Part shown: piece by piece, positions 1 through 16,069 of the stretch
Layout of the letters: the number at the start of each line of letters is the position of its first letter
Position numbering within the stretch: the stretch's first letter is position 1
Source: an uncultured bacterium
Lineage (GTDB): Bacteria > Chloroflexota > Dormibacteria > Aeolococcales > Aeolococcaceae
Length of the DNA: 64,000 nt
Direction of reading: 5' to 3'
Assembly: GCA_963847225.1 (NCBI GenBank)
Contig: CAWJYZ010000003.1
Coordinates: 153,512 to 217,511 of the forward strand
Made by a program: the position numbers and the translations under genes
The notes under the pieces: generated by a model
What the model was told of the DNA's origin: nothing
Databases searched by the model: none
The model's input: the letters and a program-made list of their open reading frames with translations, nothing else

Positions 1-148
1 CGCCGACACCCGGCGCTGGCGGGAGATGGCGGCGCGGAGCTGGGCGATGGCTCGCCCCGATGCCACCGAGCGGGTGGCGGCCCTGCTCCGTGAGCTCGCC
101 GCCAGCCGAGTGCCCCGGGCCGCCGGCGCCGCCCCGGCGCTCCGATGA
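1..148 (+). CDS. murG: UDP-N-acetylglucosamine--N-acetylmuramyl-(pentapeptide) pyrophosphoryl-undecaprenol N-acetylglucosamine transferase, C-terminal end (partial, runs off window start)
   Basis: Frame 2 reads ...ATERVAALLRELAAS...* and ends with TGA at 146-148, overlapping the murC ATG (ATGA). Its position directly upstream of murC matches the usual murG-murC order. Only about 48 aa are visible. Confidence 0.4.
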   Translation, partial: ADTRRWREMAARSWAMARPDATERVAALLRELAASRVPRAAGAAPALR

Positions 149-1605
149 GCAGTCCCCGCCACGTCCACGTCCTGGGGATCTGCGGCTACGCGACGAGCGG
201 GGCGGCGCTCCTCGCTCGGGAGCGGGGGGACTTCGTGACCGGCAGCGACGAGCACGCCTACCCTCCCGTCACCGACATCCTCAACCGGGCGGGGATCCCC
301 TGGGAGAATCACCACGACCCGCGCAACCTCGACCGCTGGGGCCCCCCCGACCTGGTCATCGTCGCCAACGGGGTGCGCACTCACAACGAGGAGTGGCTGG
401 AGGCTGAGCGGCGCGGCATCCCCCAAGAGAGCGAGATGGAGTTCTACGTCTCCCTGTGTGGAGACCGGACGCGCCTCGCGGTCTGCGGCACCCACGGCAA
501 GACGACGACGACGGCGCTCCTCATCCACATGCTCGCGAGTGGCGGCCTCGACCCCGGGTTCCGGCTCGGCTCCCTCTCCCTCGACATGGGCGGGAGCGCC
601 CGCCTCGGCACCGGCCCCTTCGTCTTCGAGGGCGACGAGTACACGACGGCGCCGTGGGATTCCCGTCCCAAGTTCCTGCACACGCATCCCCAGGCCGCCT
701 GCGTGACCCGCCTGGAATGGGACCACCCCGATGTCTACCCGTCCTTCGGTGAATACCGGGAGCCATTTGTGCAGCTGGCGGAGAGCGTTCCGCCGTCAGG
801 TCTCCTCGTCCTCTGCGGCGACGATCCCGAGGCGCTTGCGCTCCGTTCACACGCGCGCTGTCCGGTCGTCGTCTACGGCGAGGCTCCTGGTTGCGACTGG
901 CGGGTGCGGCGCCTGGGCGACGACGGCACCGTGCAGCGCTTCCGCGTCGACTGCCGTGCGCTCAGGATCCCGGAGATCGAGCTCACCTTCCCTGGACGGC
1001 ACAATGCTCTCAACGCCACCAGTGCCCTGGCCCTCGCCCACTTCGCGGGAGCCTCGCTCGACGCCTGCGTCGCCGCCTGCGCGAGCTTCCGGGGTCCGGC
1101 CCGGCGCTTCGAGATCCTGGGCGACGCGGGCGGCGTGACCGTCGTGGACGACTATGCTCACCACCCCACCGAGTGCTGGGCGGCCATCAACGCCGCCCGC
1201 GCCCGCTACGGAGCGCGACGCATCATCGCCGTGCACACGCCGCACACGTATTCGCGCACGCGGACCCTGCTTTCCGAATATGCGCACAGCTTCGATGAGG
1301 CGGACGTGGTGGTGCTCGGTCCCATCGAGATGGCGCGGGAACGGCACCTGCCGGCAACCGTCTCCCCCGCGGACGTCGCCGCTCGGATATCGGGGCGCGC
1401 GGTGCACCTGGTGGAGGACAGCGCCGAGGGCGTCGAGTTGGTGTCGAAGCTGGCGAAATCCGGAGACGTGGTGGTGGTCCTCTCGCTGGGGGGCTTCGAC
1501 AAGATCGCGCGGCGCATCCTCGCGGCGCTGTCGGAGCGGGCAGGTGGGGGAGCTCCTCCCCCCACCCCCCGGGGACGCGCGGGTCCGCGGGGCGCGGTGC
1601 TTTGA
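145..1605 (+). CDS. murC: UDP-N-acetylmuramate--L-alanine ligase
   Basis: 486-aa ORF with the Mur ligase ATP-binding motif GTHGKTTTTALL and N-terminal Rossmann ICGYATSG. It lies within the mur/fts cluster. Confidence 0.9.
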   Translation: MSSPRHVHVLGICGYATSGAALLARERGDFVTGSDEHAYPPVTDILNRAGIPWENHHDPRNLDRWGPPDLVIVANGVRTHNEEWLEAERRGIPQESEMEFYVSLCGDRTRLAVCGTHGKTTTTALLIHMLASGGLDPGFRLGSLSLDMGGSARLGTGPFVFEGDEYTTAPWDSRPKFLHTHPQAACVTRLEWDHPDVYPSFGEYREPFVQLAESVPPSGLLVLCGDDPEALALRSHARCPVVVYGEAPGCDWRVRRLGDDGTVQRFRVDCRALRIPEIELTFPGRHNALNATSALALAHFAGASLDACVAACASFRGPARRFEILGDAGGVTVVDDYAHHPTECWAAINAARARYGARRIIAVHTPHTYSRTRTLLSEYAHSFDEADVVVLGPIEMARERHLPATVSPADVAARISGRAVHLVEDSAEGVELVSKLAKSGDVVVVLSLGGFDKIARRILAALSERAGGGAPPPTPRGRAGPRGAVL

Positions 1606-2504
1606 GCCATGCGTGGCTCACGGAGATCCCGGGGATCCTCCGGGACGAGCCGCTTTCCCGGCACTCTCAATATGGCATCGGGGGGCCGGCGGATTGGTAC
1701 CTCAAGCTCGGCGACGTCTCCCGGCTCGCGACGCTCCTGCGCCGCTGCCACGAGAGCGGCGTGCCGGTGACCGTCATCGGGGCGGGGAGCAACAGCCTCA
1801 TCCTGGACGGCGGCATCCGAGGTCTCGTCGTCGAGCTGCCGCGGGGACGGCTGCGGGAGATCACCGATAGCGTCATCGAGCTTCCCGGCGGGGCCATGAT
1901 GCCGCGCGCCGCGCTCGACTGCGCTCGGCTCGGGATCGGCGGCCTGGAGTTCGGGATCGGGGTCCCCGGCACCTGCGGGGCCTCGGTGCGGGGCAACGCC
2001 GGGGCCTTCGGTAGGGAGGTGAAGGATGCCCTCATCGACTGCGACCTGGTGGCCCCGGACGGCACCTCGGAGCACCTCATCAACCCCGAGCTCGACTTCC
2101 ACTACCGGGATTCACGGCTCAAGCGAGACCTCTCCGGTCACATCGTGACCGCCGCCCGGTTCGGGGTGCGGCGCGAGCTGCCCGCGACGGTGCGGGCTCT
2201 CACCGAGGCCATCCAGGCGGAGCGCCGCGCCACCCAGCCCTACAACGCACGCAGCCTGGGCAGCATGTTCACCAACCCGCCCGGCGACCACGCCGGCCGC
2301 CTCATCGAGATGGCCGGCCTCAAGGGGGCGCGGGTCGGCGCCGCCGAGGTATCGCTGCTGCACGCCAACTTCATCGTCAACACAGGCGGCGCCGCGGCCG
2401 GCGACGTGCAGGAGCTGATCGACCTCATCCAGCGCAGCGTGGCCGAGAAGTCCGGCGTCCATCTCGTCCCCGAGATCGCCATCCTCGGTGAGGTGGCAGG
2501 GTGA
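1602..2504 (+). CDS. murB: UDP-N-acetylenolpyruvoylglucosamine reductase
   Basis: 300 aa with the FAD-binding MurB signature (GIGGPADWYL, GAGSNSLI). The TTG start overlaps the murC stop. Confidence 0.9.
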   Translation: MSHAWLTEIPGILRDEPLSRHSQYGIGGPADWYLKLGDVSRLATLLRRCHESGVPVTVIGAGSNSLILDGGIRGLVVELPRGRLREITDSVIELPGGAMMPRAALDCARLGIGGLEFGIGVPGTCGASVRGNAGAFGREVKDALIDCDLVAPDGTSEHLINPELDFHYRDSRLKRDLSGHIVTAARFGVRRELPATVRALTEAIQAERRATQPYNARSLGSMFTNPPGDHAGRLIEMAGLKGARVGAAEVSLLHANFIVNTGGAAAGDVQELIDLIQRSVAEKSGVHLVPEIAILGEVAG

Positions 2505-3448
2505 GCGGACTGCGCATCGCGGTGGTGTGCGGGGGACCGAGCCCTGAGGCGGAGGTGTCCCGGCTGTCGGCCGCGCAGGTGAGCGCCGCGCTTCGTTCGC
2601 GGGGACACGCGTGCACCACCTTGGAGGTGGACGCCGAGCTGTGGCCGGCACTGCAGGCTGGGAGGTACGACTGCGTCTTCATCGCCGTGCACGGGCGCTT
2701 CGGCGAGGACGGCACGGTGCAGGGGGTCTGCGAGCTGCTCGGGCTGCCCTACATCGGCAGCGGCATCACCGCCACCGCGATCTGCTTCGACAAGGTGATG
2801 GCCAAGCGCCTCTTCCTCGCCGAGGGCCTGTGCACCCCCGCCTGGCTCAGCGTCCCCGCTGTTCCGGACGCTTCTGTCCCCATCGCGGGGCTGATGGAGG
2901 CGGCCGCCGGGGAGCTCGGCTACCCACTGGTGGTGAAGCCCCGTCACGGCGGCTCGACGATCGGCCTGAGCATCGTCCAGGACCCTTCCGAGCTCGTCGA
3001 AGCCCACCGGATCGCCGCCCAACACGGCGAGGTGCTCTGCGAGAGGTTCGTCGCCGGAACCGAGGTCACGGTGGGCGTGGTGAGGGATAATGCACTCCCG
3101 ACCCTCGAGATCATCTCCAACCGCCCCCTCTACGACTATGCAGCGAAATACACCACGGGTCAGAGCCGGCACATCATCCCCGCGCGCCTTCCCGAGGCGC
3201 AGCGCCGCGCCTCACAGGACGCCGCGCTCCGCGCCCATCGCACCCTGGGCTGCCGCGACCTCTCCCGCGTCGATGTCATCGTCTCCTCCCAGGGGACGCC
3301 CTGGGTGCTGGAGGTGAACGCCATCCCCGGGCTCACCGAGCTCTCCCTGCTGCCCGACGCCGCCCGCGCCGCCGGGGTTGCCTTCCCCGAGCTCTGCGAG
3401 GGGCTGGTGCAGCGGGCGCTGGACCGGGCGGCGAGGGGCGGACGGTGA
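2501..3448 (+). CDS. ddl: D-alanine--D-alanine ligase
   Basis: 315 aa with ATP-grasp Ddl motifs (IAVVCGGPSPEAEVS, EVNAIPGLT). The GTG start overlaps the murB stop. Confidence 0.9.
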   Translation: MSGLRIAVVCGGPSPEAEVSRLSAAQVSAALRSRGHACTTLEVDAELWPALQAGRYDCVFIAVHGRFGEDGTVQGVCELLGLPYIGSGITATAICFDKVMAKRLFLAEGLCTPAWLSVPAVPDASVPIAGLMEAAAGELGYPLVVKPRHGGSTIGLSIVQDPSELVEAHRIAAQHGEVLCERFVAGTEVTVGVVRDNALPTLEIISNRPLYDYAAKYTTGQSRHIIPARLPEAQRRASQDAALRAHRTLGCRDLSRVDVIVSSQGTPWVLEVNAIPGLTELSLLPDAARAAGVAFPELCEGLVQRALDRAARGGR

Positions 3449-4437
3449 TCGAAGCCCCGGAGCGGCTCGCCCACCCGGTCGACCCGCGCACCATGCACCG
3501 CGCCCGGGTCCGCGCCGTGGCTTCGGCAATCGCCTCTGACGTCGATCCGATCCGGAAGTTCGAGGCCGGGCGCGAGGTCCCCCTTCGGCGCAGCGCTCGG
3601 CGACGTCGAACTGGGACGGCACCGTCCGCGCCGGCCCCGCGGGGCCGCGACCGCCGCCTCCTCCTCGCGGCGTTCATCCTCGTCGCCGAGGTGGTGACGC
3701 TCGCCGTCCTCCTCACCGGGCCGCTGTTCCGCGTCCACGGGCTGACCGTGACCGGCACCCGCCTTCTCACCACGGAGCAGGTGACGGCGGCGGCGAGGGT
3801 GGGGAGGGGGAGCGTTTTTAGCCTGAATGCCGGCGCCGTATCCGCGCGTGTCAGCCGTCTCCCCTGGGTGCAGTCGGCGAACGTCAGCGTCGCCCTCTCC
3901 GGACGGGTCACCATCGCGGTCACCGAGCGCGCGCCGATGATCCGGGTCGTGCGCGCCGGCCGCGAGTATGCGGTGGCCTCCGACGGGGCTCAGCTTTGGC
4001 TCTCCTCGGCTCAGGAGGAGGCCCTCTCGAATGTGCCCCTCCTCATCGACCTCCGTCCCGCCGCCCTGCGCACGCCGATGAGCGCCTCGCTCGCCGACAC
4101 CCTCGGCCGCGCCGCCCTGGAGCTTCCGCGGCTGCTCGGCGTTCGAGTGGTGGCGTACGAGTGGGGCGCCCAGGCCCAGCTCTCGCTGTGGACCTCGGCG
4201 GGCTGGCAGGCGGTCCTCGGTGACCTCTCCGTCCCGGGCGCGCTCAGCGCGGTACCAGCTCAGCTCGGGGCCCTCAGCGCCCTGCGCTCTGACCTCGACT
4301 TCTCGAACCCCGCCCATCCGCACGTCGGGCGTCCCTTCGGCTACGTCAACCTCGCCGACCCCGCCGCGCCGGCGGTGGGGGGGAGGCCGGGTATCCCCGG
4401 GACGGTGAGCGCGGCCCTGACCTCGACCTCCGCCTGA
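3445..4437 (+). CDS. ftsQ: cell division protein FtsQ/DivIB (POTRA domain)
   Basis: 330 aa. A basic N-terminus is followed by one TM segment (LLLAAFILVAEVVTLAVLL). The POTRA-like region (VTGTRLLTTEQV...NVSVALSGRVTIAVTERAP) sits directly after ddl. Confidence 0.75.
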   Translation: MIEAPERLAHPVDPRTMHRARVRAVASAIASDVDPIRKFEAGREVPLRRSARRRRTGTAPSAPAPRGRDRRLLLAAFILVAEVVTLAVLLTGPLFRVHGLTVTGTRLLTTEQVTAAARVGRGSVFSLNAGAVSARVSRLPWVQSANVSVALSGRVTIAVTERAPMIRVVRAGREYAVASDGAQLWLSSAQEEALSNVPLLIDLRPAALRTPMSASLADTLGRAALELPRLLGVRVVAYEWGAQAQLSLWTSAGWQAVLGDLSVPGALSAVPAQLGALSALRSDLDFSNPAHPHVGRPFGYVNLADPAAPAVGGRPGIPGTVSAALTSTSA

Positions 4438-4529
4438 CCACCCACGCCGGCAGCGCCGAGCCGCGCGGTGCGGAGCGAGGATCAGCCGGGGGATGCACTT
4501 CACCGGGGAATCCATCGACGTCATAGGGT

Positions 4530-4558
4530 TTGACATCAAACGCTTAGATATCTAAAAT
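4530..4558 (+). promoter_or_regulatory. consensus sigma70-type promoter (TTGACA-17 bp-TAAAAT) upstream of the MFS pseudogene
   Basis: TTGACA at 4530-4535, a 17-nt spacer, then TAAAAT at 4553-4558. This sits in an unusually AT-rich stretch of a roughly 70% GC genome. It is followed by a stem-loop (AGCCCTTC...GAAGGGCT at 4559-4588), an AGGAGG ribosome-binding site, and the ATG at 4605. Confidence 0.6.
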
Positions 4559-4604
4559 AGCCCTTCGAGAGCCCCAGCGAGAAGGGCTGCAGGAGGTGAC
4601 GGCC

Positions 4605-5292
4605 ATGACGGGAGTCGTCTCGAGACCGCGGGAGGGGGCGGACCGGCGCCGCTGGTTGGCCCTCGTGTTCATCGCCCTCGCCCAGCTGCTACAGCCCACT
4701 CCAGGCGGGCCTCGCCTTCCTTCCCATGACCGTCGCCTCGCAGTCGGCCTGGCTCATCGCCCGCCGCCTCATGCCGCGGGTGCGGCCGCGCCATCTCGTC
4801 GGTCCCGGGCTCCTCGCCGCCGCCATTGGGATGCTTCTCCTCACCCAGCTGCACGCGGGGAGCGGCTACTTCGCGCAGGTCCTCCCCGCGGAGCTTCTCC
4901 TCGGCGCGGGGCTCTCCTGCGCCATGGTGCCGGCATTCAGCCTCGCCACCCTGGGGGCGGAGATGCGCCAGGCCGGGGTGGCCTCGGCCGCGGTGATGAC
5001 GGCGCAGCAGGTGGGCGGCTCGATCGGCACCGCCCTTCTCAACACGGTCGCCGCGGGCACCACGGCCGCCTATCTGATCGGCCACGGCGCGGGTGCGGCG
5101 GCGCAGCTGACCGCGCTCATCCACGGCTACACGGCGGCCACCGCCTGGGGTGGCGGCTTCCTTCTCGCCGGTGGCGCGGCCGCCCTCCTCCTCATCGACG
5201 CGCCGCGTCCGGCGGCGCAGCATGGGGCGGAGCGGCCGGAGCAGAGGCTCCAGCGCCCGGGTGCGACCGAGGCGCTCCGCGAGTCCGCGTGA
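4605..5292 (+). pseudogene. MFS (DHA2/EmrB-QacA-like) transporter with internal deletion and frame change
   Basis: Frame 0 (4605-about 4695) encodes an MFS N-terminus (RRRWLALVFIALAQLLQ). Frame +1 from about 4700 to 5292 encodes the C-terminal third (LQAGLAFLPMTVASQSAWLIARRLMPRVRP...GGSIGTALLNTVAAG). That C-terminal part aligns closely to the intact paralog at 30530..32059 (LAAGLTFLPQTLAIAVGSQVSSRLIPRLGARP...GGSLGLAVLATLAAD). About 265 aa (TM2 to roughly TM9) are missing. Confidence 0.7.
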
Positions 5293-5311
5293 TCAGGAGG
5301 GAGATGACGTC

Positions 5312-5824
5312 ATGAGCACAGCGCAGAGCTCGCCGGGATCGCGCCGGCCGCTGGGCCGGCGCATCCAGCGGCGCTTCTTCCGCGTCGTCAATATCGGGAT
5401 GCGGCGGATCCTCGGCCTTCCCTTCCGGACGCCGATGAGCGGCCGGCTCATGCTCCTGCATCTCACCGGGCGGAGGACCGGCCGCCTCCACCTCCAGCCG
5501 GTGAGCTACGTCCGTGACGGCGAGACCCTGCTGACCCCGGGGGGAGGGAATTGGAAGCTGAACCTCGTGGAGGGCCAGCCGGTCCCGGTGCAGCTGGAGG
5601 GGAGGGCGCGCACGCTGCGTCCCGAGATGGTCCGCGACGCGGACACGATCGAGCGCCTCCTTGGTGTCATGACCAGGTCCAACCCCATGGTGAGCCGCTT
5701 CGTGGGCATGCGCCGGGGTCCCGACGGCCGCCTGGACCGCGCCGCGCTGGAGCGGGCCATGGCCCACGGGTTCGTCATCGTCCGCTGGCATCCGGAGGCG
5801 GAGGGCACCGGCCCCTCCCGGTGA
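5312..5824 (+). CDS. deazaflavin-dependent nitroreductase family (Ddn/DUF385-like) protein
   Basis: 171 aa from the ATG at 5312, with a GGAGG ribosome-binding site at 5295-5303. The sequence pattern (LLHLTGRRTGRLHLQPVSYVRDGETLLTPGGGNWKLNLVEGQPVPVQLEGRARTL) is typical of small F420/FMN-binding split-barrel nitroreductase-family proteins. The family call is by motif memory only. Confidence 0.5.
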   Translation: MSTAQSSPGSRRPLGRRIQRRFFRVVNIGMRRILGLPFRTPMSGRLMLLHLTGRRTGRLHLQPVSYVRDGETLLTPGGGNWKLNLVEGQPVPVQLEGRARTLRPEMVRDADTIERLLGVMTRSNPMVSRFVGMRRGPDGRLDRAALERAMAHGFVIVRWHPEAEGTGPSR

Positions 5825-6188
5825 TCTCACGGCTGGACACGCCGGGCGGCTGGCCAGTCGGGGAGCTGCCGCGGACGAGATCGTGCGGGCCCTCGGCAGG
5901 CACCTCCGCGTCTACCTGGTGTCGACAAGGTGGTCAGCCGGTCAATGGCTCTGACCTCCGCCCGTTGGCGGGTCGGCTCATTACTTCGCGGCCTTCACGC
6001 GTTGGTTGCAGTAGGTGACATTCCAGTTGCACGTGCCCGACCGCGTCCCGATCACCCGGGGCTGGTTCCTGGGGTGCTCGGCTGGCGTCGCAGTCCAGCG
6101 GTAGTCGGGGAGCCGGCGGGGAGGCCATGGAGCAGAGGGTGGCATCGAGGCGGGGAAGTCACGGGATCGCGGCCGCAGACTGGACCCG

Positions 6189-7076
6189 CTAGCGGCGGCC
6201 CTCCCAGGGCCGCGCCGCGAGCAGAGCCGAGAGGATGGCGCGCGTCGCGGGGGAACGGTTCATGGTGTAGAAGTGGATGCCCGGTGCCCCGGCGCCGAGC
6301 AGCTCCGCGCACTGGAGGGTCGACCAGGCGACGCCCAGATCCATGACGGCGTGGGGGTCGTCGCGGCGCGCCTCGAAGGCGCTGATCAACTCCCCGGGGA
6401 TCTTGACCTGCAGCCGGGCGATGAAGCCGTGAAGCTGCGCAACGCTGGTGATGGGCATGATGCCGGGGATGATGGGGGCGGTGATGCCCGCCTTGCGGGC
6501 GGCGGCCACGAAGTCGAAGTAGGCACGGTTGTCGTAGAACAGCTGGGTGATGAGGTAGGCCATCCCCGCTTCGACCTTCTCGCGCGTCCAGCGCAGCTCA
6601 TCGGCCAGGGAGGTGGTCTCGAGGTGGACCTCCGGATAGCAGGCGCCACCCACGCAGACGTCGTACTGCTCGCGAATGAGGCGGGCCAGCTCGGAGCCGT
6701 GGGACAGCCCATCCGGGACGGGGGTGAAGACCGTCTCACCCCGCGGCGGGTCTCCGCGCAGCGCGAGGACGTTCTCGATGCCGCTGTCGACAATGCGGCG
6801 GAGCACCTCGTGGAGCTCGGCTCGGTTGGCTCCCACACAGGTGAGGTGAGCGACGGGAAGGATGTCGAGCCCGCGGCGGATCCGGGCCACGAGCTCGACC
6901 GTGCGCGTTCGGGTGCTGCCCCCAGCACCATAGGTGACCGAGACGAAACCCGGCTCCAGCTCCCGGAGCTGGGAGATGGTGGTGAAGAGGGCCGTCACGC
7001 CGTCGTCGTCCCGGGGTGGGAAGAACTCGAAGCTGAAGTTGGGACGCCCCTGCCCCAGGAGATCGATCACCCGCAT
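6189..7076 (-). CDS. metF: methylenetetrahydrofolate reductase
   Basis: 295 aa with a full-length MetF fold signature (VSVTYGAGGSTRTRT, LTCVGANRAELHEVL, HFYTMN). Confidence 0.9.
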   Translation of the reverse strand: MRVIDLLGQGRPNFSFEFFPPRDDDGVTALFTTISQLRELEPGFVSVTYGAGGSTRTRTVELVARIRRGLDILPVAHLTCVGANRAELHEVLRRIVDSGIENVLALRGDPPRGETVFTPVPDGLSHGSELARLIREQYDVCVGGACYPEVHLETTSLADELRWTREKVEAGMAYLITQLFYDNRAYFDFVAAARKAGITAPIIPGIMPITSVAQLHGFIARLQVKIPGELISAFEARRDDPHAVMDLGVAWSTLQCAELLGAGAPGIHFYTMNRSPATRAILSALLAARPWEGRR

Positions 7077-7219
7077 GGTCAGGCCATGGTGCCAGAGACG
7101 TCGATCGGGCGTACCCAGATTGACAACAGATCGGCGCGGAGACGGCCAGCTTGCTCGCCACGTACCGTCTTCCCAAGGTCACGGCGCAATTCTGGCGCCT
7201 CTTGCGCTATAATGGCGCT

Positions 7220-7462
7220 ATGGCCACCATTCAGGTGCGTGAGGTCCCGGAGGAAGTCCACCGAACCTACCGAGCGAGAGCCGCAGCTGCCGGGATGAGC
7301 CTGACGGAGTACCTACGGGCCGAGCTCATCCGCAACGCCAGCATGCTCACCCCCGCTGAGGTCGCCGATGAGGTCGACGCTGAGATCCGCCATGAAGGGT
7401 CTGAGGGCTTCGCCGTCCGCTCCTCGGCTCGTATCGTCCGAGCCGATCGCGCCTCACACTGA
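7220..7462 (+). CDS. vapB: type II antitoxin, ribbon-helix-helix (VapB/FitA-like)
   Basis: 80 aa from the in-frame ATG at 7220 (MATIQVREVPEEVHRTYRARAAAAGMSLTEYLRAELIRNAS). A TATAAT sits 6 nt upstream (7208-7213), suggesting a leaderless transcript. A PIN-domain ORF follows immediately. Confidence 0.7.
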   Translation: MATIQVREVPEEVHRTYRARAAAAGMSLTEYLRAELIRNASMLTPAEVADEVDAEIRHEGSEGFAVRSSARIVRADRASH

Positions 7463-7469
7463 CAGAGGA

Positions 7470-7862
7470 GTGGCGGTTCTCGACGCCTCGCTCGTCGTCG
7501 ACGCGCTGGTGGTGTCTGGGGGGGCCGGGTGGCGCGCCAGGAAGGCGCTTCGGGAAGAGGCGGTGCTTCAGGTGCCTGCGATCTTTTCGGCAGAGGTTAC
7601 GTCAGCCCTCCGAGGCTTGCTCCTCCGTGGGGAGCTCAGCCCGATGCGTGTTGGTGCCGCCCGCCGCCGGCTCCGTCGCATTCGAACGGTCCAATATGCC
7701 CTCGAGCCGTTCGCCGATCGAGTGTGGGCGCTCCACGCCAACCTCACTGTCTACGACGCGTGGTACGTCGCCCTCGCCGAGCGCCTGGGAATGGACCTGC
7801 TGACATCCGACCGTCGGCTGGCGTCCGCCCAGGGGCCGCGCTGCCGGGTGCGCGCCATCTGA
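7470..7862 (+). CDS. vapC: PIN-domain toxin VapC
   Basis: The probable GTG start at 7470 lies 8 nt after the antitoxin stop. The N-terminus VAVLDASLVVDAL contains the conserved PIN Asp, and the C-terminal part contains Asp residues (...WYVALAERLGMDLLTSDRRL). The start is uncertain; the ORF track shows an ATG at 7368 that would overlap vapB. Confidence 0.65.
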   Translation: MAVLDASLVVDALVVSGGAGWRARKALREEAVLQVPAIFSAEVTSALRGLLLRGELSPMRVGAARRRLRRIRTVQYALEPFADRVWALHANLTVYDAWYVALAERLGMDLLTSDRRLASAQGPRCRVRAI

Positions 7863-7898
7863 CCGAGCGCCTCGGCGCGTCTGGTAGCGTGACCGACC

Positions 7899-8942
7899 GT
7901 GCGCGCCGTCTACGCCACGGGCTTCGGAGGTGACGAGCCCCTCGCCAACCTCGAGGTGGGCGAGCAGCCCGAGCCGGAGCTCCGCCCCGGCTGGGTGCTG
8001 GTCCGGGTCACCGCCGCCTCGCTCAACCATCACGACCTGTGGACGCTGCGCGGGGTGTCATCGCGACCCCTCACGGCTCCGCAGATCCTCGGCTGTGACG
8101 CGGCCGGTCGCGTCGAGGCCGTCGCCGCTGCGGGGGACGGTGCACCCGCGTCGGGCACGCGCGTCGTCGTCCACAGCGTCATCGGCTGCGGCACCTGTCC
8201 GGCCTGCCGGGCCGGGCAGCCGAATCTCTGCCAGCGGCTGGCCCTGTTGAGCGAGCCGCCCTACGGCGGCGCCCTCGCCGAGCTGGTCGCCGTCCCCGTC
8301 CAGAACCTGGTGCCGCTTCCCGACGCGGTGAGCGACGCCGCGGCCGCCTGCCTGCCGACCGCCTACCTCACCGCCTACCGGATGCTCTTCGTGCGGGCGG
8401 GCCTCCGTCCCGGGATGGCGGTCCTCGTCCAGGGAGCGGGGGGAGGGGTGGCGACCGCCGCCCTCCTCCTCGGCGTCGCCGCCGGGTTGGAGGTGCACGT
8501 CACCTCCCGCGACCCCGGCAAGCGGGATGCCGCGCTCCGCCTCGGGGCCGCCGGCGGCTTCGCCCCCGACGACCGCGATGCCTCTCGGGCCCTGGCCGCC
8601 CGGACGGGCGGCGGGGTCGACGCCGTGATCGAGACGGTGGGGGAGGCCACCTGGGAGCTCAGTCTCCGTTCGGTCCGCCCCGGGGGCACGGTGGTGGTGG
8701 CGGGGGCGACCAGCGGGGCCAACCCCAAGGCGCAGCTGAACCGGATCTACTGGCGGCAGATCACGGTGGCCGGAACCACCATGGGGACGCGCGCGGAGCT
8801 GGAGCGCCTCGTCTCCCTCTGCGCGGCCGGAAGCCTCACCCCCCTCATCGACCGTGAGGTCCCGCTCGCCGATGCCCGCTCCGCCTTCCAGGCCCTCGAG
8901 GCTGGGGAGCAGCGCGGCAAGCTCGTCGTGCGCGTGAGTTGA
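7899..8942 (+). CDS. zinc-binding alcohol dehydrogenase / quinone oxidoreductase (MDR superfamily)
   Basis: 347 aa with a GroES-like N-terminus and a Rossmann motif (LVQGAGGGVATAALLLGVAAGLEV). The catalytic-zinc region is CGTCPAC. GTG start. Confidence 0.8.
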   Translation: MRAVYATGFGGDEPLANLEVGEQPEPELRPGWVLVRVTAASLNHHDLWTLRGVSSRPLTAPQILGCDAAGRVEAVAAAGDGAPASGTRVVVHSVIGCGTCPACRAGQPNLCQRLALLSEPPYGGALAELVAVPVQNLVPLPDAVSDAAAACLPTAYLTAYRMLFVRAGLRPGMAVLVQGAGGGVATAALLLGVAAGLEVHVTSRDPGKRDAALRLGAAGGFAPDDRDASRALAARTGGGVDAVIETVGEATWELSLRSVRPGGTVVVAGATSGANPKAQLNRIYWRQITVAGTTMGTRAELERLVSLCAAGSLTPLIDREVPLADARSAFQALEAGEQRGKLVVRVS

Positions 8943-9005
8943 CCTTTGGACCCGGCTGAGCTGCGGTGTGAGCACATCGCCTGTGCGTGATATCATGCGA
9001 TATCA

Positions 9006-9227
9006 ATGGCTGATGTTCTCGTGCGCGACCTGCCGGAGGAGGTCCTCGCCACGCTCGATCTGCGCGCGGCGCAGCTGGGAATCTCGCGCAGCGAGTACTT
9101 GCGGCGCAGGTTGACTGCGGACGCCACCGCGTCTAGCGGGCCGGTCTTCGTCGAGGACCTGGAGCGCTTTGCGCTGACCTTCGCGGACCTGGCCGACCCT
9201 GAGGTTTTGGCCCAGGCTTGGCGGTGA
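9006..9227 (+). CDS. vapB: type II antitoxin, ribbon-helix-helix (VapB/CopG-like)
   Basis: 73 aa ([36 protein letters not shown]). Two palindromic TGATATCA-like boxes sit immediately upstream at 8988-9005. The reading frame overlaps the downstream PIN gene. Confidence 0.7.
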
Positions 9228-9640
9228 GCACAGGCTGGCTCATCGACAAGTCTGCGCTCGTCCGTCTGCCTGACAGTCCGGATGCGGCCCAATGGGCAAG
9301 GCGAATCGAGCGCGGGATGGTGCGGATCACCACTCTGACCCGGCTCGAGATCGGCTATTCGGCCCGGAGCGCAGCGGATCTGCGATCGGGGTTCCGGCGG
9401 GCTCCCCTCACGACGATGCCGGTGGAGTACCTCACCCCAGCCGTCGAGGGCCGCGCGTTCGAGGTCCTCAGCTTGCTCGCCGACCGCGGGCAACATCGAG
9501 CGCCGTCAATCCCCGACCTGATCGTGAGCGCCGCCGCGGAGCTCGGAGGATTGAGCGTCCTCCACCTGGACAAGGACTTCGAGCTCATTGCCGGGATCAC
9601 GGGCCAACTCATGGAGCGCCTTCAGCTCTCCGCGGTCTGA
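9218..9640 (+). CDS. vapC: PIN-domain toxin VapC
   Basis: 140 aa ([10 protein letters not shown]...[26 protein letters not shown]), a classic PIN toxin architecture. It overlaps the antitoxin by 10 nt. Confidence 0.75.
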
Positions 9641-10002
9641 GCCAGCGGGTCCCGAGGGCGCCCAAGGCCAAATCGCTTGCGCCCTTTGGCCCCCAGTGCT
9701 AGGGTGAACGAGCTTCAGTGGCCCGAGGGGGCCGCGAGCATCGGGCCTCGCCGGGACAGGTGCAGTGGCGGGGCCTTTGCTTTTGCCCGTCGCCGCTCCA
9801 GGAACCCTCCCCGAACCCAGCAGAGATCTCGCCCGGGCCTCCGGCTCTGAATAGCCCCGGAGGCTGACAATTTCGAACAAATTGACGCAATCATTCCCCC
9901 AACATCTTGTGGGCTCCCGTCCGGGCAAACTCCACATCTTGCGGTTTTGCCCCCAAAAAGGCTTCCCTGCGCGTATTGCCCCGGCTATACTCCTGTCCTA
10001 AT

Positions 10003-11280
10003 GTGAGCCGTCCTCGCCACGTCTTCGCACTCGATCTGGGAACAACCAAGGTCTGCTGCGCCGTCGCCGACATCGAGGCTGCCGGGCTGCGCGTCCTGGG
10101 GGTGGGCGAGGCCGTCTCCAAGGGCATCCGCAAGGGCGCCGTCATCGAGATCGACCGGGCGGCCGAGGCGGTCGCCGAGGCCGTCGACCTCGCCGAGCAG
10201 ATGTCGGGCATCGCCATCGATACGGCGGTCGTCGGGCTCGCCGGCGCGCACATCACCTCCCAGAACAGCCGGGGGGTGGTGGCCGTCGCCGCTGGGCGGC
10301 GTGAGGTTGCAGCCCAGGACGTCGGGCGCGCCATCGACGCCGCCCGGGCGGTGTCGGTGCCCAGCGACCGCCGCATCCTCCACGTCCTGCCCCAGCAGTT
10401 CACCATCGATGGCCAGGATGGGGTCCGCGACGCGGTGGGGATGTCGGGAAGCCGCCTGGAGGTCGACGCCCACATCGTGACCGGGGCGCAGACGGCCATC
10501 CAGAATGTTGTCAAGGTCGTCCACAAGGCGGGCCTCGACGTCGACGACCTCGTGCTCCAGGTGCTCGCCTCCGCCGAGGCGGTGGTCGGCGAGGATGAGC
10601 TGGAGCGCGGCGTCGTCGTCGTCGATATCGGAGGCGGCACCACCGATGTCGCCGTCTTCAACCGCGGCAGCATCGTCCATACCGCCGTGCTCCCCGTCGG
10701 GGGCAACCACGTGACCGGCGACCTCGCCGTGGGATTGCGGTGCGATCTCGACACCGCGGAGGTGGTGAAGCGCAGCTTCGGGCACTGCCTCCAGCTCACC
10801 GTCGCGGCCGATGCCGAGGTGACCCTCACTCCCATGGGCTACGACGAGCCGGTCAACGTCCCCCAGCGCTACCTCGCCGAGATCATCGGGCCGCGGGCCC
10901 GCGAGATCGCCCAGCTCATCGCCGCCCAGATCGAGATGGCGGGACCGCCGTCGCAGTTCGCGGGCGGCATCGTGCTGACCGGCGGGGGAGCGTTGCTGCG
11001 TGGCTTCGCCGAGATGACCCAGAGCGTCACCGACCTCCCCGCCCGGGTGGCGGCGCCGCAGGGAGTGAGCGGGATGAACGATGAGATCCAGGGCCCCGAC
11101 CATGCGACGGTGGTCGGGCTGCTGCGCTGGGCGGCGCGTTATCGGGGGGGCCGGATCGGACGCCGCCTGCCCAGCGCCGGGGGCGGTCATGTCGAGCTGC
11201 GCGGGCGGGTACATGCCCCGGCCAGCGCGGCGGAGGCGGTGGGGGCGCGCTTCGGACGCTGGCTCCGAGAGCTCTTCTGA
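10003..11280 (+). CDS. ftsA: cell division protein FtsA
   Basis: Actin-like ATPase: [42 protein letters not shown]. The probable GTG start at 10003 is in frame, and the ORF track extends to 9907. ftsZ lies directly downstream. Confidence 0.9.
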
Positions 11281-11309
11281 AGGATGGAAAGAGGAAAACG
11301 TTTGCCGGG

Positions 11310-12512
11310 ATGGATGAGATGAACGAGAGAGAACGCGAGCTGCGCCGGATGACCCAGGAGTTCATGGCGCGCGGTACGAGCAGCGAGGCGCGGCAGCGCG
11401 AGGAGAGTGCCATGGCCGATCTCGACCGGACCCTCGAAGGCCACGCTCGCATCCGAGTGGTGGGTGTCGGTGGCGGCGGCAGCAACGCCGTCAACCGAAT
11501 GCTGCGCAGCAACCTGCGTGGCGTCGAGTTCATCGCCCTCAACACCGATCATCAGGCTCTCCAGCAGTCCGGGGCGCAGCGCAAGCTGCGCATCGGGGCC
11601 AAGCTCACCCGCGGTCTCGGCGCCGGCGGCGACCCGGAGAAGGGGCGGAACGCGGCGGAAGAGTCTCGCGAGGAGATCGCCAAGGCGGTCTCGGACTCCG
11701 ACATGGTCTTCGTCACCGCCGGGATGGGCGGCGGCACCGGGACCGGGGCCGCTCCCGTCGTCGCCGAGATCGCCAAGGAGACGGGGGCTCTCACCATCGG
11801 TGTTGTCACCAAACCCTTCCGCTTCGAGGGGCTGCGCCGGCAGAAGATCGCCGAGGACGGGATCGCCACTCTTCAGGAGCGTGTCGACACTCTCATCACC
11901 ATTCCCAACGAGCGCCTCATGCAGGTCGTCGACAAGAAGACCTCGATCACCGACGCCTTCAAGGTCGCCGACGACGTGCTCCGTCAGGGCGTCCAGGGCA
12001 TCAGCGACCTCATCGTCTACCCCGGGCTCATCAATCTGGATTTCGCCGACGTCAAGGCGATCATGTCTGGACAGGGCGCGGCCCTCATGGGCATCGGCTT
12101 CGGGACCGGCGACACCCGGGCCGCCGATGCGGCTCGCGACGCGGTGGCCAGCCCCCTGCTGGAGACGACGATCGCCGGCGCCAAGGGGATCCTCCTCAAC
12201 ATCACGGGCGGCAGCGACCTCACCCTGTACGAGGTCAACGAGGCGGCTCAGCTGGTCAGCGAGTCCGCGGACAAGGACGCCCAGATCATCTTCGGGACCG
12301 TTATCGACGAGGCGATGAAGGGCGAGGTCAAGATCACCGTGATCGCCACCGGGTTCACCGGTCAGATCGACGTCCTCGGTGCCCTCGCCTACGAGCCGCA
12401 GGCGCGTCCGGTCAGCGCCGATCGCCCGGTTTTCTCGGCGGCTCCGCGCAGCCCCATGCCGGTGAATCTCGACGATCTGGACATCCCCGCATTTCTCAGG
12501 GATCGCAGGTAG
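11310..12512 (+). CDS. ftsZ: cell division GTPase FtsZ
   Basis: Tubulin signature GGGTGTG with the T7 loop, and a C-terminal DIPAFLR peptide. It has an N-terminal extension of about 35 aa before the core ([15 protein letters not shown]). Confidence 0.95.
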
Positions 12513-12576
12513 TAATCGACAAGTCTGGCTATAATTCGAAGGGCCGCGACAGCAGGTCTCCGTCCGGCTATCGGCG

Positions 12577-13104
12577 ATGAGATGCCCGTTCTGCCAATCC
12601 GTCGACTCCAAGGTGGTGGACTCTCGAGACACGGACTCGGGGGTCCGCCGCCGGCGGGAGTGTCTCAGCTGCGGGAAGCGCTTCACCACCTATGAGAGGA
12701 TCGAGACCGTCCCCCTCTTCGTGATGAAGAAGGATGGCCGGCGCGAAGAATTCAGCCGCTCCAAGCTCCTCGGTGGATTGCTGATCGCCAGCAAGAAGCG
12801 TGACATCGCCCCCGATCAGCTCGAAGCGCTCGTCGACGATGTGGAGAACCGGCTGCGCGGCGAGCACCACACCGAGGTCCCCTCGCAGACGGTGGGGGAG
12901 ATGGTCATGGAGCGGCTGCGGGAGATCGACGAGATCGCCTATGTCCGCTTCGCCTCCGTGTACCGCTCCTTCAAGGACGTGGGCGAGATGCGGGCGGAGA
13001 TCGAGGACATCCTGACCAGTCCGCCTGGCCCCCGCCGCGCCGCTCCCCGTCGCGGCCGGCCGCGCGGCAAGGAGGAGGAGCTGGCCCTCGATCTGGGCAA
13101 GTGA
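12577..13104 (+). CDS. nrdR: transcriptional repressor NrdR
   Basis: MRCPFCQSVDSKVVDSRDTDSGVRRRRECLSCGKRFTTYERIE: a zinc ribbon followed by an ATP-cone, the canonical NrdR pattern. Confidence 0.9.
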   Translation: MRCPFCQSVDSKVVDSRDTDSGVRRRRECLSCGKRFTTYERIETVPLFVMKKDGRREEFSRSKLLGGLLIASKKRDIAPDQLEALVDDVENRLRGEHHTEVPSQTVGEMVMERLREIDEIAYVRFASVYRSFKDVGEMRAEIEDILTSPPGPRRAAPRRGRPRGKEEELALDLGK

Positions 13105-13143
13105 GGACAACCGCGCCCGGGCCGGCGCGGAAGGTCTCCTGAG

Positions 13144-13527
13144 ATGGCGGGAGGCCGGCTTCCCGCTCGGGTGCTCACGGCCCTGGCCGGCCTCGACGAG
13201 GCGCTCGTCAGCTCCCGTTCGGGGTCGCGGGAGGTGACCGTCCCCATGACCGTGGCGGTGACCCCGGAGGGGAGCGTCTACGTCATGACGAGCGCCTTGA
13301 GCCGCAAGGCGCAGCGTTGGGAGCGTGATCCCTGGGTCCGCATCACGGTTCCGGCGACCGGAGAATCTGCCGAGGGACAGGTGGTGCGGGTGCCGCCGGG
13401 AGGGTTGCACGGCGCCGAGGAGGCGCTGATCATCGATCGCTTCGGCAGCGCCGGAGCGGCTACTCCCGAGTCCCTTCGGCAGACCCTCGAGATCGGGACG
13501 CATCTCCTTCTCCGCCTCGAGACCTGA
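13144..13527 (+). CDS. hypothetical protein (possibly PNPOx-like split-barrel)
   Basis: 127-aa ORF with high GC3. No confident family assignment can be made from sequence alone. Confidence 0.4.
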   Translation: MAGGRLPARVLTALAGLDEALVSSRSGSREVTVPMTVAVTPEGSVYVMTSALSRKAQRWERDPWVRITVPATGESAEGQVVRVPPGGLHGAEEALIIDRFGSAGAATPESLRQTLEIGTHLLLRLET

Positions 13528-13679
13528 TGGTGGAGGCAGCGCGCGCCGGCCCCGCTGCTCAAGTTGTGGGGAGAAGGAGAGAGCGGCCTCACGGTCGCTC
13601 CCGCAGAGGAGAGCCGCTGCTCGAGGATGAGATCGACACCGGTGGGTACGGAGGCGATGGCGGCGCCCAGCGCCGCGGC

Positions 13680-14588
13680 TCACCCACGGCGCGTCGGTTC
13701 CGGCGCGGGCGGCGAGGGTACCCGCACGGTGAGCCCGTGGGCCAGAACCGTGACGGTGAGGGATGAGCCCTTCGCCATGACCTCGCCGTCCACCTCGCGG
13801 AGCAGCGGACGGGCAGAGTGAATCTCGACGTGGCGAGCGCGATGGTGCTCGAGGAGGGCGTCGCTGGCCGAGCTTCCGACGATCACCCGCCATCCCACTC
13901 GCGCCCAGCTGGGCAGGTCCGGCGGTGCGAGGATGGCCACATCGAGGAGGCCGTCGTCGAGGCGCGCGCTGCGGAGGATGGCGAAGCCGCCGGGGAGAAG
14001 CCCGGCGTTGCCCACGAAGATCGACCTCGCCCGGCGGCGCAGCTCCGGTCCGCCGTCGAGGCTTATCGAGAAGGCCGTGGCCGGTCCTCCGAGGTGGATC
14101 AATCCGGCCAGCGCGTATCCCACCCAGCCGAGGTGCCCCTTGACGACGGCCGGGGTGCCTCGAACCACCTCGGCATCGAGCCCGATGCCGGCCATGGCGA
14201 CGAAGGCCCGGCCCTCGGCAAGGCCGATATCGATGCGCCGATCGCCTCCCCTCAATGCGGCCTCCAGAGCCGGCCCGAGCCGGCGGGGCAGGCCGAGAGC
14301 CGTCGCCGCGATGTTGGCAGTGCCGAGGGGAACGATGCCGAGCGCGATACCCGTGCCCTGGAGTGCCTCGGCGCAGGCGCGCACGGTGCCGTCCCCGCCG
14401 GCGGCGACGACCAGCTCGGCGCCGGCGGTGATCGCCCGGCGCGTCGCGAGGAGCCCGTCGCGGGGTCGGGTCGTCTCGAGGATGAGCGGCTCCCACCCCG
14501 CCCCGCGCGCCGCGACGCGGCAGGCGCGGCGGAGCCACGCCGGGTCGTCCACCCTGGTGCGGTTGATGACGAAGGCAACACGTGGCAT
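13680..14588 (-). CDS. diacylglycerol kinase catalytic-domain lipid kinase (YegS/BmrU family)
   Basis: 302 aa. The DAGK_cat motif ELVVAAGGDGTVRA is present, together with the ...GIVPLGTANIAATALG loop. Confidence 0.8.
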   Translation of the reverse strand: MPRVAFVINRTRVDDPAWLRRACRVAARGAGWEPLILETTRPRDGLLATRRAITAGAELVVAAGGDGTVRACAEALQGTGIALGIVPLGTANIAATALGLPRRLGPALEAALRGGDRRIDIGLAEGRAFVAMAGIGLDAEVVRGTPAVVKGHLGWVGYALAGLIHLGGPATAFSISLDGGPELRRRARSIFVGNAGLLPGGFAILRSARLDDGLLDVAILAPPDLPSWARVGWRVIVGSSASDALLEHHRARHVEIHSARPLLREVDGEVMAKGSSLTVTVLAHGLTVRVPSPPAPEPTRRG

Positions 14589-14725
14589 GGGGAGCGTCTG
14601 CGGCCGCGCCGCGGCCGGTTTCGACGTTGCCGACGAGTTTGCCGCCTCCGCCAGCGCGACGCCTCCGGACCCGCCGCGGGCGGCACCTTGATGCGGGCCG
14701 CCGCGGCGGGGGGAGGGGGAGAGCC

Positions 14726-16069
14726 TCAGGCGGGCGGACCGGCGGCGAGGGTGATGGACGTCGTGTGCTGCGTCCCGGAGGCGTCCATCCAGCCGAGCTG
14801 GATGGTCTGGTCAGGGTGGTCGCCCTTCAGGGCGGTGGAGAGGTCACCGACGCCGGTGATGGCCGTGCCGTTCACGCTCACGATGACGTCGCCGGCCTGG
14901 AGCCCGGCCCGCGCCGCCGGCGATCCGGGGATCACCTGGGCGATGAGCGCGCCCCCGCTCGGAGATGCCACCGACGGATTCGCGTCCTGCACCTCCACGC
15001 CGATGAGCGGGCCCGAGCCTCCAATGACGACGTTTCCGCTCGCCGCGCCGCTCTGGATCTGATGAACGATGCTCATCGCGGTGTCGATGGGGATGGCGAA
15101 GCCGACGGTGCTGCTGATCCCGGTCCCGGAGGCGACGGGGGCGCCGGAGGAGGAGCCGGCGGTGTCCATGCCCACGACCTTCCCGGCGGCGTCGACGAGC
15201 GGACCTCCGGAGTCCCCGGGAACGATGTCCGCGGCCAGCTGGATGGCGCCGTTGAGCGTCTCCGAGGTGGCGCCGTCGCTCGCCGTCACCGTCTGATCGA
15301 GGGCGGTGACGGTGCCGGCGACGACGGCCGGGCTACCCCCTCGTCCGTAGGCGTTGCCGAGGGCCACCACCTGATCGCCGACCTGGAGGGAGGACGAATC
15401 GCCGATGGGAGCGGCCCTCAAGGTCGGGGCGTTCTCGATCTGGAGGAGAGCCACGTCGTCGGTCGCGTCATAGCCCAGCACCTTGGCCGAGTAGGTCGGA
15501 CCCTGACCGTCCACCTGGGCGGTGATGTTGGTGGCGCCGTCGATCACGTGGTTGTTGGTGAGCACCTCGCCGCTCGAGGTGATGATGATCCCGGTGCCTG
15601 CTGCCGGCGAGCCGTTGATGACGTCCTTGATGTCGACGACAGAGGGGTCGATCGCGGCGGCGATGGTGGAGGCGTTGGCGCTCCCCCCACCGGTGGATGG
15701 CGAGCCGCTCGGGCTCTGCCCTCCCCGCAGGGCCAGGCCGATGCCCGCGCCCACCCCGCCGGCGGCGAGGGCGACCGCCACGCCGCCGGCGAGCATCGCC
15801 GCCAGCAGGCGCCGGCGATGGCGGGGCGGCCGGGGCGCCGCCGCCGGATGGCCCGGCGGCGGTGGATAGGGAGGCGGATAGGGAGGCCCCCAGAAGGGGG
15901 GGCCCCAGGTGGGGGGACCCCAGCTCTGCTCAGGCGGGGACCATGCCGGGGGGTCGCCAGCCCCCGGTGCGGGTGGGGGAGGCGCGGCCCACGATTCCCA
16001 CGCGGCACCGGCGTCGGAGGGCTGGCCGGCGGTCTCGGGCGGTTCGTTGGTGCTCGGTGTCTCAGTCAT
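14726..16069 (-). CDS. htrA: HtrA/DegP-family trypsin-like serine protease with PDZ domain, proline-rich N-terminus
   Basis: Catalytic triad context is present (TNNHVI, DVALLQ, GDSGGPLVD), with a C-terminal PDZ domain. The N-terminal roughly 90 aa are Pro/Trp-rich (PPYPPPYPPPPGHP), followed by a TM helix. Confidence 0.85.
   Translation of the reverse strand: MTETPSTNEPPETAGQPSDAGAAWESWAAPPPPAPGAGDPPAWSPPEQSWGPPTWGPPFWGPPYPPPYPPPPGHPAAAPRPPRHRRRLLAAMLAGGVAVALAAGGVGAGIGLALRGGQSPSGSPSTGGGSANASTIAAAIDPSVVDIKDVINGSPAAGTGIIITSSGEVLTNNHVIDGATNITAQVDGQGPTYSAKVLGYDATDDVALLQIENAPTLRAAPIGDSSSLQVGDQVVALGNAYGRGGSPAVVAGTVTALDQTVTASDGATSETLNGAIQLAADIVPGDSGGPLVDAAGKVVGMDTAGSSSGAPVASGTGISSTVGFAIPIDTAMSIVHQIQSGAASGNVVIGGSGPLIGVEVQDANPSVASPSGGALIAQVIPGSPAARAGLQAGDVIVSVNGTAITGVGDLSTALKGDHPDQTIQLGWMDASGTQHTTSITLAAGPPA

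Follow-up and report, generated by a model that had tools for sequence, protein, structure and literature searches.

The division and cell wall (dcw) gene cluster of Dormibacteria, an uncultured soil lineage, is split between ftsQ and ftsA; this split is an old, lineage-wide gene order in which metF and a gene for an oxidoreductase of the medium-chain dehydrogenase/reductase (MDR) superfamily (adh) are long-standing residents. We analyzed it in a 64-kb window (the whole stretch of DNA under study, with a mean GC content of 71%), where the interval from ftsQ to ftsA measures 5565 bp (positions 4438-10002). In addition to metF and adh, this interval carries a pseudogene of the major facilitator superfamily (MFS), a Ddn-like gene and two VapBC toxin-antitoxin (TA) pairs. 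An earlier interpretation made from the letters alone (hereafter the sequence-only reading) had explained the whole block as one insertion splitting ftsQ from ftsA; the comparison with relatives presented here shows that it is not a single acquired island. We consider it very probable that the cluster was broken after ftsQ before the sampled lineages diverged, and that small additions entered the spacers of this genome later.

Gene order between ftsQ and ftsA in Dormibacteria

Relatives of the window were collected by an FtsA-based scan with one genome per GTDB species, which yielded 80 loci (numbered with the prefix L) whose FtsA proteins are 66-92% identical to that of the window; nearly all of them carry the label Candidatus Dormibacteria or Dormibacterota. 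Fifteen window proteins were placed on these loci via tblastn, and the synteny counts rest on the 70 loci in which ftsQ and ftsA can both be seen. The prevailing order is ftsQ(+) metF(-) adh(+) ftsA ftsZ nrdR. Of these 70 relatives, 69 have a minus-strand metF gene between ftsQ and ftsA, 66 have a plus-strand adh between metF and ftsA, and 65 have both genes. There is no relative among the 70 in which ftsQ abuts ftsA, and in each of the relatives examined a distance of 1.4 kb or more separates the two genes. The MetF proteins of the relatives are 47-80% identical to that of the window and the adh products 58-78%. A genomic island would be missing as a whole from the same site in relatives; here the backbone is conserved, and this shared gene order is the very outcome that the sequence-only reading had said would speak for an ancestral organization rather than an insertion.

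In four species (L009, L011, L014 and L071) adh is missing and metF stands alone between ftsQ and ftsA, which indicates that adh is dispensable here and that metF is the more constant resident. In the distant clades L015-L065, the ddl gene at this position is only around 30% identical to the ddl of the window, and ddl is separated from ftsQ by an extra murC-like gene (24-28% identical); differences among clades therefore extend to the upstream part of the dcw cluster.

Within the window, the open reading frames (ORFs) and their Pfam and NCBIfam matches bear out the gene list and coordinates of the sequence-only reading, including the end of ftsQ at 4437 and a start of ftsA at about 10003. The murC, murB, ddl and ftsQ genes are contiguous and co-directional, and the stop/start overlaps noted there measure 4 nt between successive genes. 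The metF gene is convergent with ftsQ. The ftsA and ftsZ genes are 29 nt apart, and their adjacency is kept in the relatives. The start of ftsA was placed by an alignment of 76 loci, in which the codon at the position of GTG 10003 is GTG or TTG throughout and indels that are not multiples of three occur upstream of it. This alignment rules out TTG 9907, which opens the longest ORF, and sets the end of the block at 10002. The sequence-only observation is thus confirmed, and its interpretation is partly supported.

The composition of the block does not clearly set it apart as foreign, as the sequence-only reading had suggested a profile of GC content and of GC content at third codon positions (GC3) might do. 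Against a background of 0.858 +/- 0.062 for 41 long window genes, GC3 is 0.87-0.92 in the flanking dcw genes together with metF and adh (0.90-0.92 for these two), 0.92 in the MFS remnant and the Ddn-like gene, and 0.74-0.84 in the VapBC genes. No tRNA genes were found in positions 1-16000, and no integrase or transposase domains among the ORFs scanned.

Probable additions seen in this genome alone among those sampled

The MFS remnant, the Ddn-like gene and the four VapBC genes have no tblastn match (E<=1e-5) in any of the 80 loci, and neither the ftsQ-metF spacer (4438-6188) nor the metF-adh spacer of the window has a blastn match to any of them. The suggestion that the block is acquired or decaying DNA is thus supported for the TA pairs, the MFS pseudogene and the Ddn-like gene, which are accessory and, among the genomes sampled, confined to this one; it fails for metF, adh and the right edge, which are native.

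The leftmost addition opens with a promoter motif that the sequence-only reading had called textbook. As a motif this description stands: with 11 of 12 consensus positions matched, it is the sole TTGACA-N17-TAAAAT site in 5.8 kb, where shuffled sequences average 0.2, and the blastn search of 4438-6188 against the 80 loci returned no counterpart in relatives. Behind it lies the MFS remnant, which consists of a stub of the first transmembrane segment (TM1; 4605 to about 4690, 29 residues) and a C-terminal third (about 4691-5292) in another frame. The frame opening at 4605 encodes MTGVVSRPREGADRRRWLALVFIALAQLL, beyond which its sequence is unrelated, and the second frame reads YSPLQAGLAFLPMTVASQ... 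up to the stop at 5292. The stub RRWLALVFIALAQLL is followed by a frameshifted jump to YSPLQAGLAFLP, equivalent to around residue 306 of about 485. On family profiles, the remnant covers positions 310-410 of the 485-position DHA2/EmrB profile and positions 258-347 of 347 in Pfam MFS_1, the last third only; it is not a full-length (about 485-residue) single-frame DHA2 transporter of the EmrB/QacA type.

In a protein search, the remnant matched MFS proteins of the DHA2 type by the hundreds. Among homologues on long contigs, the best (57% identical; L084) is of the full-length type; its N-terminus reads ...RWLALGFIALAQLMVALDATIV / ...IQGRWLALGFIALAQLMVALDATIV, and it arrives at YSPVQAGLAFLP about 270 residues after its start motif. 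This comparison implies that the MFS gene of the window keeps the TM1 start and the last third, joined out of frame, with about 270 residues gone, and so bears out its earlier description as an internally deleted pseudogene (two frames, about 270 codons missing). The L084 copy is itself broken by one in-frame stop (...VYACT*AVSAGW...), and is either a decaying copy or affected by a sequencing error.

The Ddn-like gene downstream has a reading frame that looks intact and an AGGAGG ribosome-binding site. Its product exceeds the Pfam cut-off for the family and scores 28.8 bits on NCBIfam TIGR00026, under the cut-off of 46.35. We considered whether the MFS and Ddn-like genes form a known operon. 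L084 also carries a different DHA2 MFS gene directly upstream of an F420H2_quin_red gene, together with a divergent MarR gene; with 26% identity for one product and no match for the other this is a loose parallel only, and the idea was rejected. The 364 bp between the stop codons of the Ddn-like gene and metF (5825-6188) hold no assigned gene, have a near-average GC content of 0.70 and show no similarity to the spacer of any relative; they could be a further gene remnant.

Both TA pairs are predicted VapBC type II modules, with a gene for a PIN-domain toxin and an antitoxin gene directly upstream on the same strand. In the first pair the two genes are 8 nt apart, and vapC1, whose start was inferred from the N-terminus VAVLDASLVVD, ends 37 nt before adh. 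The antitoxin VapB1 is a FitA-like ribbon-helix-helix (RHH) protein that reaches 28 bits on the curated VapB equivalog, which has a cut-off of 60. A perfect TATAAT (7208-7213) lies 6 nt ahead of the vapB1 ATG (7220) without a ribosome-binding site, a layout of the leaderless-mRNA type. In the second pair the genes overlap by 4-10 nt depending on the start of vapC2; the public gene call for vapC2 (138 residues, start at 9224) gives a 4-nt overlap with the vapB2 stop. A duplication of one VapBC pair was ruled out, as the toxins are unrelated (E=7.5) and the antitoxins share only the RHH N-terminus (49% over 41 residues). VapC2 belongs to a very large family, some members of which are 74-80% identical to it; two of these had their neighborhoods inspected, and both lie in unrelated contexts, one of them beside phage-integrase genes. 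Look-ups of exact proteins found the MFS remnant and VapB2 on record, and not MetF, VapC2 (with a TTG start) or VapB1; the missing records are probably due to other start codons in the public gene calls.

Spacers as recurrent landing sites

Consideration of the spacer lengths shows where the additions sit. The ftsQ-metF spacer is about 200 bp in relatives and 1751 bp in the window, where the promoter motif, the MFS remnant and the Ddn-like gene make up the excess; the metF-adh spacer is about 50 bp in relatives and 822 bp in the window, the extra DNA being the first VapBC pair; and the adh-ftsA spacer is about 250 bp in relatives and about 1060 bp in the window, with the second VapBC pair as the extra. 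In many other lineages the same spacers are swollen by 0.5 up to 9 kb of unrelated cargo. Between metF and adh, L002-L007 and L068 carry a Phd/PIN pair on the opposite strand. Between ftsQ and metF, there is an L,D-transpeptidase gene in L004, a full-length MFS gene in L042, a PNPOx-like gene in L056 and a single ORF of 2108 residues in L010. Between adh and ftsA, we found phosphodiesterase genes in L023 and L027, two tandem genes for 418-residue DUF222 and HNH endonuclease proteins in L053, a DUF4328 gene in L066 and about 9 kb with amylase-family genes and a permease gene in L073. MFS genes occupy the ftsQ-metF spacer in L042, L046 and L069 and were considered as orthologues of the window remnant; at only 30% identity they were rejected.

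These three spacers behave like permissive sites at which DNA can land; an operon that is interrupted at these points anyway would explain why insertions are tolerated. The giant ORF of L010 contains many evenly spaced antisense ORFs of about 73 residues, a pattern that suggests an internally repetitive protein, and the DUF222-HNH pair of L053 has the appearance of a selfish HNH element that settled in this hot spot.

Conserved elements at the right edge

Both edges of the block are AT-richer, as had been noted from the letters alone, with a GC content of 62% at 4438-4595 and 58% at 9796-10002 against the 71% of the window. The right edge (9641-9990), described there as promoter-like, had also been taken as a border of the block. 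A border at this place does not hold, as the region contains two non-coding elements conserved across the class.

The first of these (9677-9790) is a candidate small RNA element. In its alignment a variable -35-like hexamer and a 17-nt spacer are followed by an invariant G-T-G..A...T, which corresponds to TGn-TAnnnT and hence to an extended -10 promoter signature. Two hairpins follow, the second of which (P2) has 10-13 bp and is succeeded by a U-rich tail that is moderate to weak. The element was matched by nhmmer in 69 loci; a covariance model detects it once in the window and in 71 of the 80 loci, and 1.45 Mb contained no further copy. It always occupies the spacer upstream of ftsA, and it is still present in L009 and L071, which lack adh. 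Across 70 sequences, standard pairs fill 97.5% of the cells of the hairpins; 6 of the 15 pairs show compensatory changes, and none of 500 shuffles, a control that ignores relatedness, reached the covariation score. In slid controls the paired fraction falls to 36-61%. G-U pairs are frequent, a pattern consistent with the plus strand.

Relative to ftsA, the element as a whole is turned around in L018 and L022, and 0.7-1.8 kb separate it from ftsA in L048, L057, L066 and L075, with ORFs in between in L066 and L075. These arrangements disfavor an obligate 5' leader or attenuator of ftsA and favor an independent small gene. Two observations weigh against a small RNA: the fold of the single sequence (z = -0.53) does not exceed shuffles in this GC-rich background, so that the case is carried by covariation and synteny, and the U-tract is weak. 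A scan of 4300-10200 against Rfam 15 (E<=1) returned no family match for either conserved non-coding element, with a spurious miRNA match elsewhere. On balance, we see an even chance that 9677-9790 is the gene of a previously undescribed Dormibacteria small RNA, kept upstream of ftsA throughout the class in either orientation. Such an RNA may act on ftsAZ or on other targets via the invariant AGGUGCAG loop.

The second element (9899-10002, about 105 nt) is conserved down to the most distant loci of the 76-locus alignment. No -35 box can be assigned in it, and it is presumably the ftsAZ promoter or a regulatory, regulator-binding region. The second VapBC pair lies between adh and the small-RNA-like element, which places the end of the acquired DNA near 9660 and not at 9990.

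Table 1. Features of the window, followed by features of related loci for which positions (locus coordinates) are given.
Feature	Position	Strand	Evidence or remarks
murC	145-1605	+	ORF coordinates, Pfam/NCBIfam matches
murB	1602-2504	+	ORF coordinates, Pfam/NCBIfam matches
ddl	2501-3448	+	ORF coordinates, Pfam/NCBIfam matches
ftsQ	3445-4437	+	POTRA_1, E=1.7e-10; last gene of the upstream dcw transcription unit
Sigma-70-type promoter motif	4530-4558	+	TTGACA-N17-TAAAAT; upstream of MFS remnant
DHA2-family MFS pseudogene	4605-5292	+	Internally deleted, frameshifted
Ddn-like gene (F420H2_quin_red/FDOR-A family)	5312-5824	+	Pfam PF04075, 27 bits (cut-off 22)
metF (methylenetetrahydrofolate reductase)	6189-7076	-	NCBIfam TIGR00676 equivalog, 319.2 bits (cut-off 293.7)
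vapB1 (FitA-like RHH antitoxin)	7220-7462	+	Pfam PF22513, E=1.4e-8
vapC1 (PIN-domain toxin)	7470-7862	+	Pfam PIN, E=3.7e-10, 40.9 bits (cut-off 23.6)
adh (MDR superfamily; zinc-ADH/quinone-oxidoreductase-like)	7899-8942	+	Pfam ADH_N, ADH_zinc_N; no NCBIfam model at or above its cut-off
vapB2 (VapB antitoxin, FitA-like RHH)	9006-9227	+	NCBIfam NF050181, 102 bits (cut-off 60)
vapC2 (PIN toxin)	9218/9224-9640	+	Pfam PIN, 33.1 bits (cut-off 23.6)
Candidate small RNA element	9677-9790	+	About 80 nt; -35 TTGCGC 9677-9682, TG 9697-9698, -10 TAGGGT 9700-9705
Candidate small RNA hairpins	P1 9718-9735, P2 9743-9776	+	P2 loop with invariant AGGUGCAG
Conserved non-coding region	9899-10002	+	Two ACATCTTGYGG copies 32 nt apart; GGCTAYACT 11-15 nt before ftsA start
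ftsA	10003-11280	+	GTG start; Pfam FtsA, SHS2_FTSA
ftsZ	11310-12512	+	Pfam Tubulin, FtsZ_C
nrdR	12577-13104	+	Downstream of ftsZ
L069, small-RNA-like element	9810-9904		
L022, small-RNA-like element	9831-9926	-	Inverted relative to ftsA
L018, small-RNA-like element	9830-9927	-	Inverted relative to ftsA
L010, 2108-residue ORF	1167-7493		ftsQ-metF spacer
L053, DUF222 + HNH endonuclease genes	6240-7496, 8427-9683		adh-ftsA spacer
L019, divergent ddl and extra murC-like gene	3300-6534		Example of the distant clades L015-L065
L084, DHA2-type MFS gene	5275-6732		Best long-contig homologue of the MFS remnant

Support for the assembly

Two Logan contigs from run ERR11594399 match window positions 2695-6471 and 8152-10408 with 100% identity and without gaps; the former carries the MFS remnant and the latter vapB2. 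Both outer junctions of the block are therefore reproduced by a second assembler, and a misassembly is unlikely.

Origin of the interrupted cluster

Taken together, our data are best explained by a break that predates the additions. The ancestral layout would have had a convergent metF and, in most lineages, a co-directional adh between ftsQ and ftsA, with ftsA-ftsZ behind a conserved upstream region of their own; transcription would have to end downstream of ftsQ and begin anew ahead of ftsA. The three spacers (ftsQ>|<metF, metF<|>adh and adh>|>ftsA) could then take up DNA without polar effects on the division genes, and such uptake would have been repeated and independent across lineages. 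The genome of the window would have gained a promoter-MFS-Ddn-like module, now decaying, in which the pump has lost about 270 codons and the reductase frame is intact; the first VapBC pair, probably co-transcribed with adh; and the second VapBC pair, between adh and the small-RNA-like element. We infer the direction, gain here and not loss elsewhere, and likewise the expression of both the accessory and the backbone genes.

Several observations weigh against this account. What is called ancestral holds for the sampled Dormibacteria only; a metagenome scan with FtsQ gave a single relative (L081, 33% identical) with the order murC-murB-ftsQ-ftsZ and without ftsA, which makes it unusable as an FtsA-bearing outgroup. 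The nearest relatives are distant (FtsA at most 92% and FtsQ at most 56% identical), which limits the dating of each insertion, and a same-species genome with empty sites was not found. Around the three inserts, insertion scars or target duplications were likewise not found, only short chance repeats of the kind typical of DNA with 71% GC. The TA genes depart only weakly from the background composition (by at most 2 standard deviations), and codon usage in the MFS and Ddn-like genes is fully native (GC3 0.92); relocation within the genome, or a donor that was related rather than foreign, may account for these two genes. Finally, positions 6472-8151 (metF, the first VapBC pair and adh) were not recovered in the second assembly, and the Logan contigs probably derive from the same read set as the source genome.

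The TA pairs, the pseudogene and the strong AT-rich promoter are what one acquired, decaying mosaic island of 5.5 kb between a once-adjacent ftsQ and ftsA would display, and adjacency of these two genes is common in other phyla. We nevertheless regard such an island as highly improbable. Of the 70 relatives, 69 have metF and 66 have adh at this position, and in none is ftsQ adjacent to ftsA; GC3 in metF and adh is similar to that of the flanks; there is no integrase, tRNA or flanking repeat; and conservation of the right edge extends across the class. That unrelated contigs were joined into a chimera during assembly or binning is scarcely credible: the source is apparently a metagenome-assembled genome, and short repeats and TA genes can mislead assemblers, but the gapless Logan matches cover both junctions, and more than 65 independent assemblies show the backbone in this order.

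The additions could also be ancestral, with the TA pairs and the MFS/Ddn module lost from all other sampled lineages. The native codon usage of the MFS and Ddn-like genes would fit such differential loss, as would the visible decay of the MFS gene, by which loss operates at this locus, and the distantly related MFS genes in the same spacer of L042, L046 and L069. It would, however, require independent loss in many lineages, the nearest relatives (L080, L068 and L073) among them; the L042 gene, at 30% identity, is not an orthologue; and in the close clade the metF-adh spacer holds another TA pair (Phd/PIN, on the opposite strand), which points to independent gains. We therefore judge it improbable. 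Somewhat less so, yet still unlikely, is a selected coupling by which metF and adh are kept beside ftsA through co-regulation of one-carbon or redox metabolism with division, an idea compatible with the early break and later additions that we favor. Synteny persists down to 66% FtsA identity despite rapid turnover of the spacers, as such a coupling would predict; on the other hand, metF, being on the opposite strand, cannot share a transcript with either ftsQ or ftsA, at least four lineages (L009, L011, L014 and L071) have lost adh, and up to 9 kb inserted between adh and ftsA is tolerated.

A pseudogene and TA pairs inside a conserved operon mimic a recent island, and it is synteny that reveals an old break which later collected mobile modules. 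If ftsA-ftsZ are transcribed independently of the mur-ftsQ genes, the conserved upstream DNA and the candidate small RNA would be the place to seek control of division. With their independent insertions at shared sites, the three spacers amount to a natural series that is useful for studying where TA modules and other small cargo can land without cost. The understanding of dcw clusters or of VapBC systems is unchanged by these results, which illustrate an ordinary kind of genome evolution.

Comparison with known systems

The canonical dcw cluster of Escherichia coli ends ftsQ-ftsA-ftsZ. The window resembles this type in its contiguous, overlapping murC-murB-ddl-ftsQ genes and adjacent ftsA-ftsZ, and differs from it in the gap of 5.6 kb between ftsQ and ftsA. 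In a previous study, which treats Dormibacteria as a class of Chloroflexota, the usual dcw cluster is described as bordered by ftsZ and ftsA (PMC10608941). Our full-text literature searches found no description of the ftsQ-metF-adh-ftsA order of Dormibacteria.

The accessory genes compare with known families to different degrees. In both VapBC pairs an RHH antitoxin gene stands right upstream of a PIN toxin gene, as in the expanded set of chromosomal VapBC systems of Mycobacterium tuberculosis, and VapB2 passes the NCBI equivalog model for VapB of the mycobacterial type; unlike the curated VapBC, VapB1 and both VapC proteins have domain-level matches only. The Ddn-like protein shares with the Ddn/FDOR-A deazaflavin-dependent nitroreductases an F420H2_quin_red domain above the Pfam gathering score, and differs in its score under the NCBIfam cut-off and in an N-terminal extension of about 40 residues.

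Genes between an FtsQ homologue and ftsA are not unprecedented. In Bacillus subtilis, non-division genes lie between the gene for the FtsQ homologue DivIB and ftsA, and ftsA and ftsZ are adjacent, as here. The intervening genes of B. subtilis are co-directional and described as belonging to one operon, whereas in Dormibacteria metF is convergent with ftsQ and the transcription unit must therefore be broken. In further contrast to B. subtilis, the residents in Dormibacteria are metabolic enzymes, and the spacers around them also gather TA modules.

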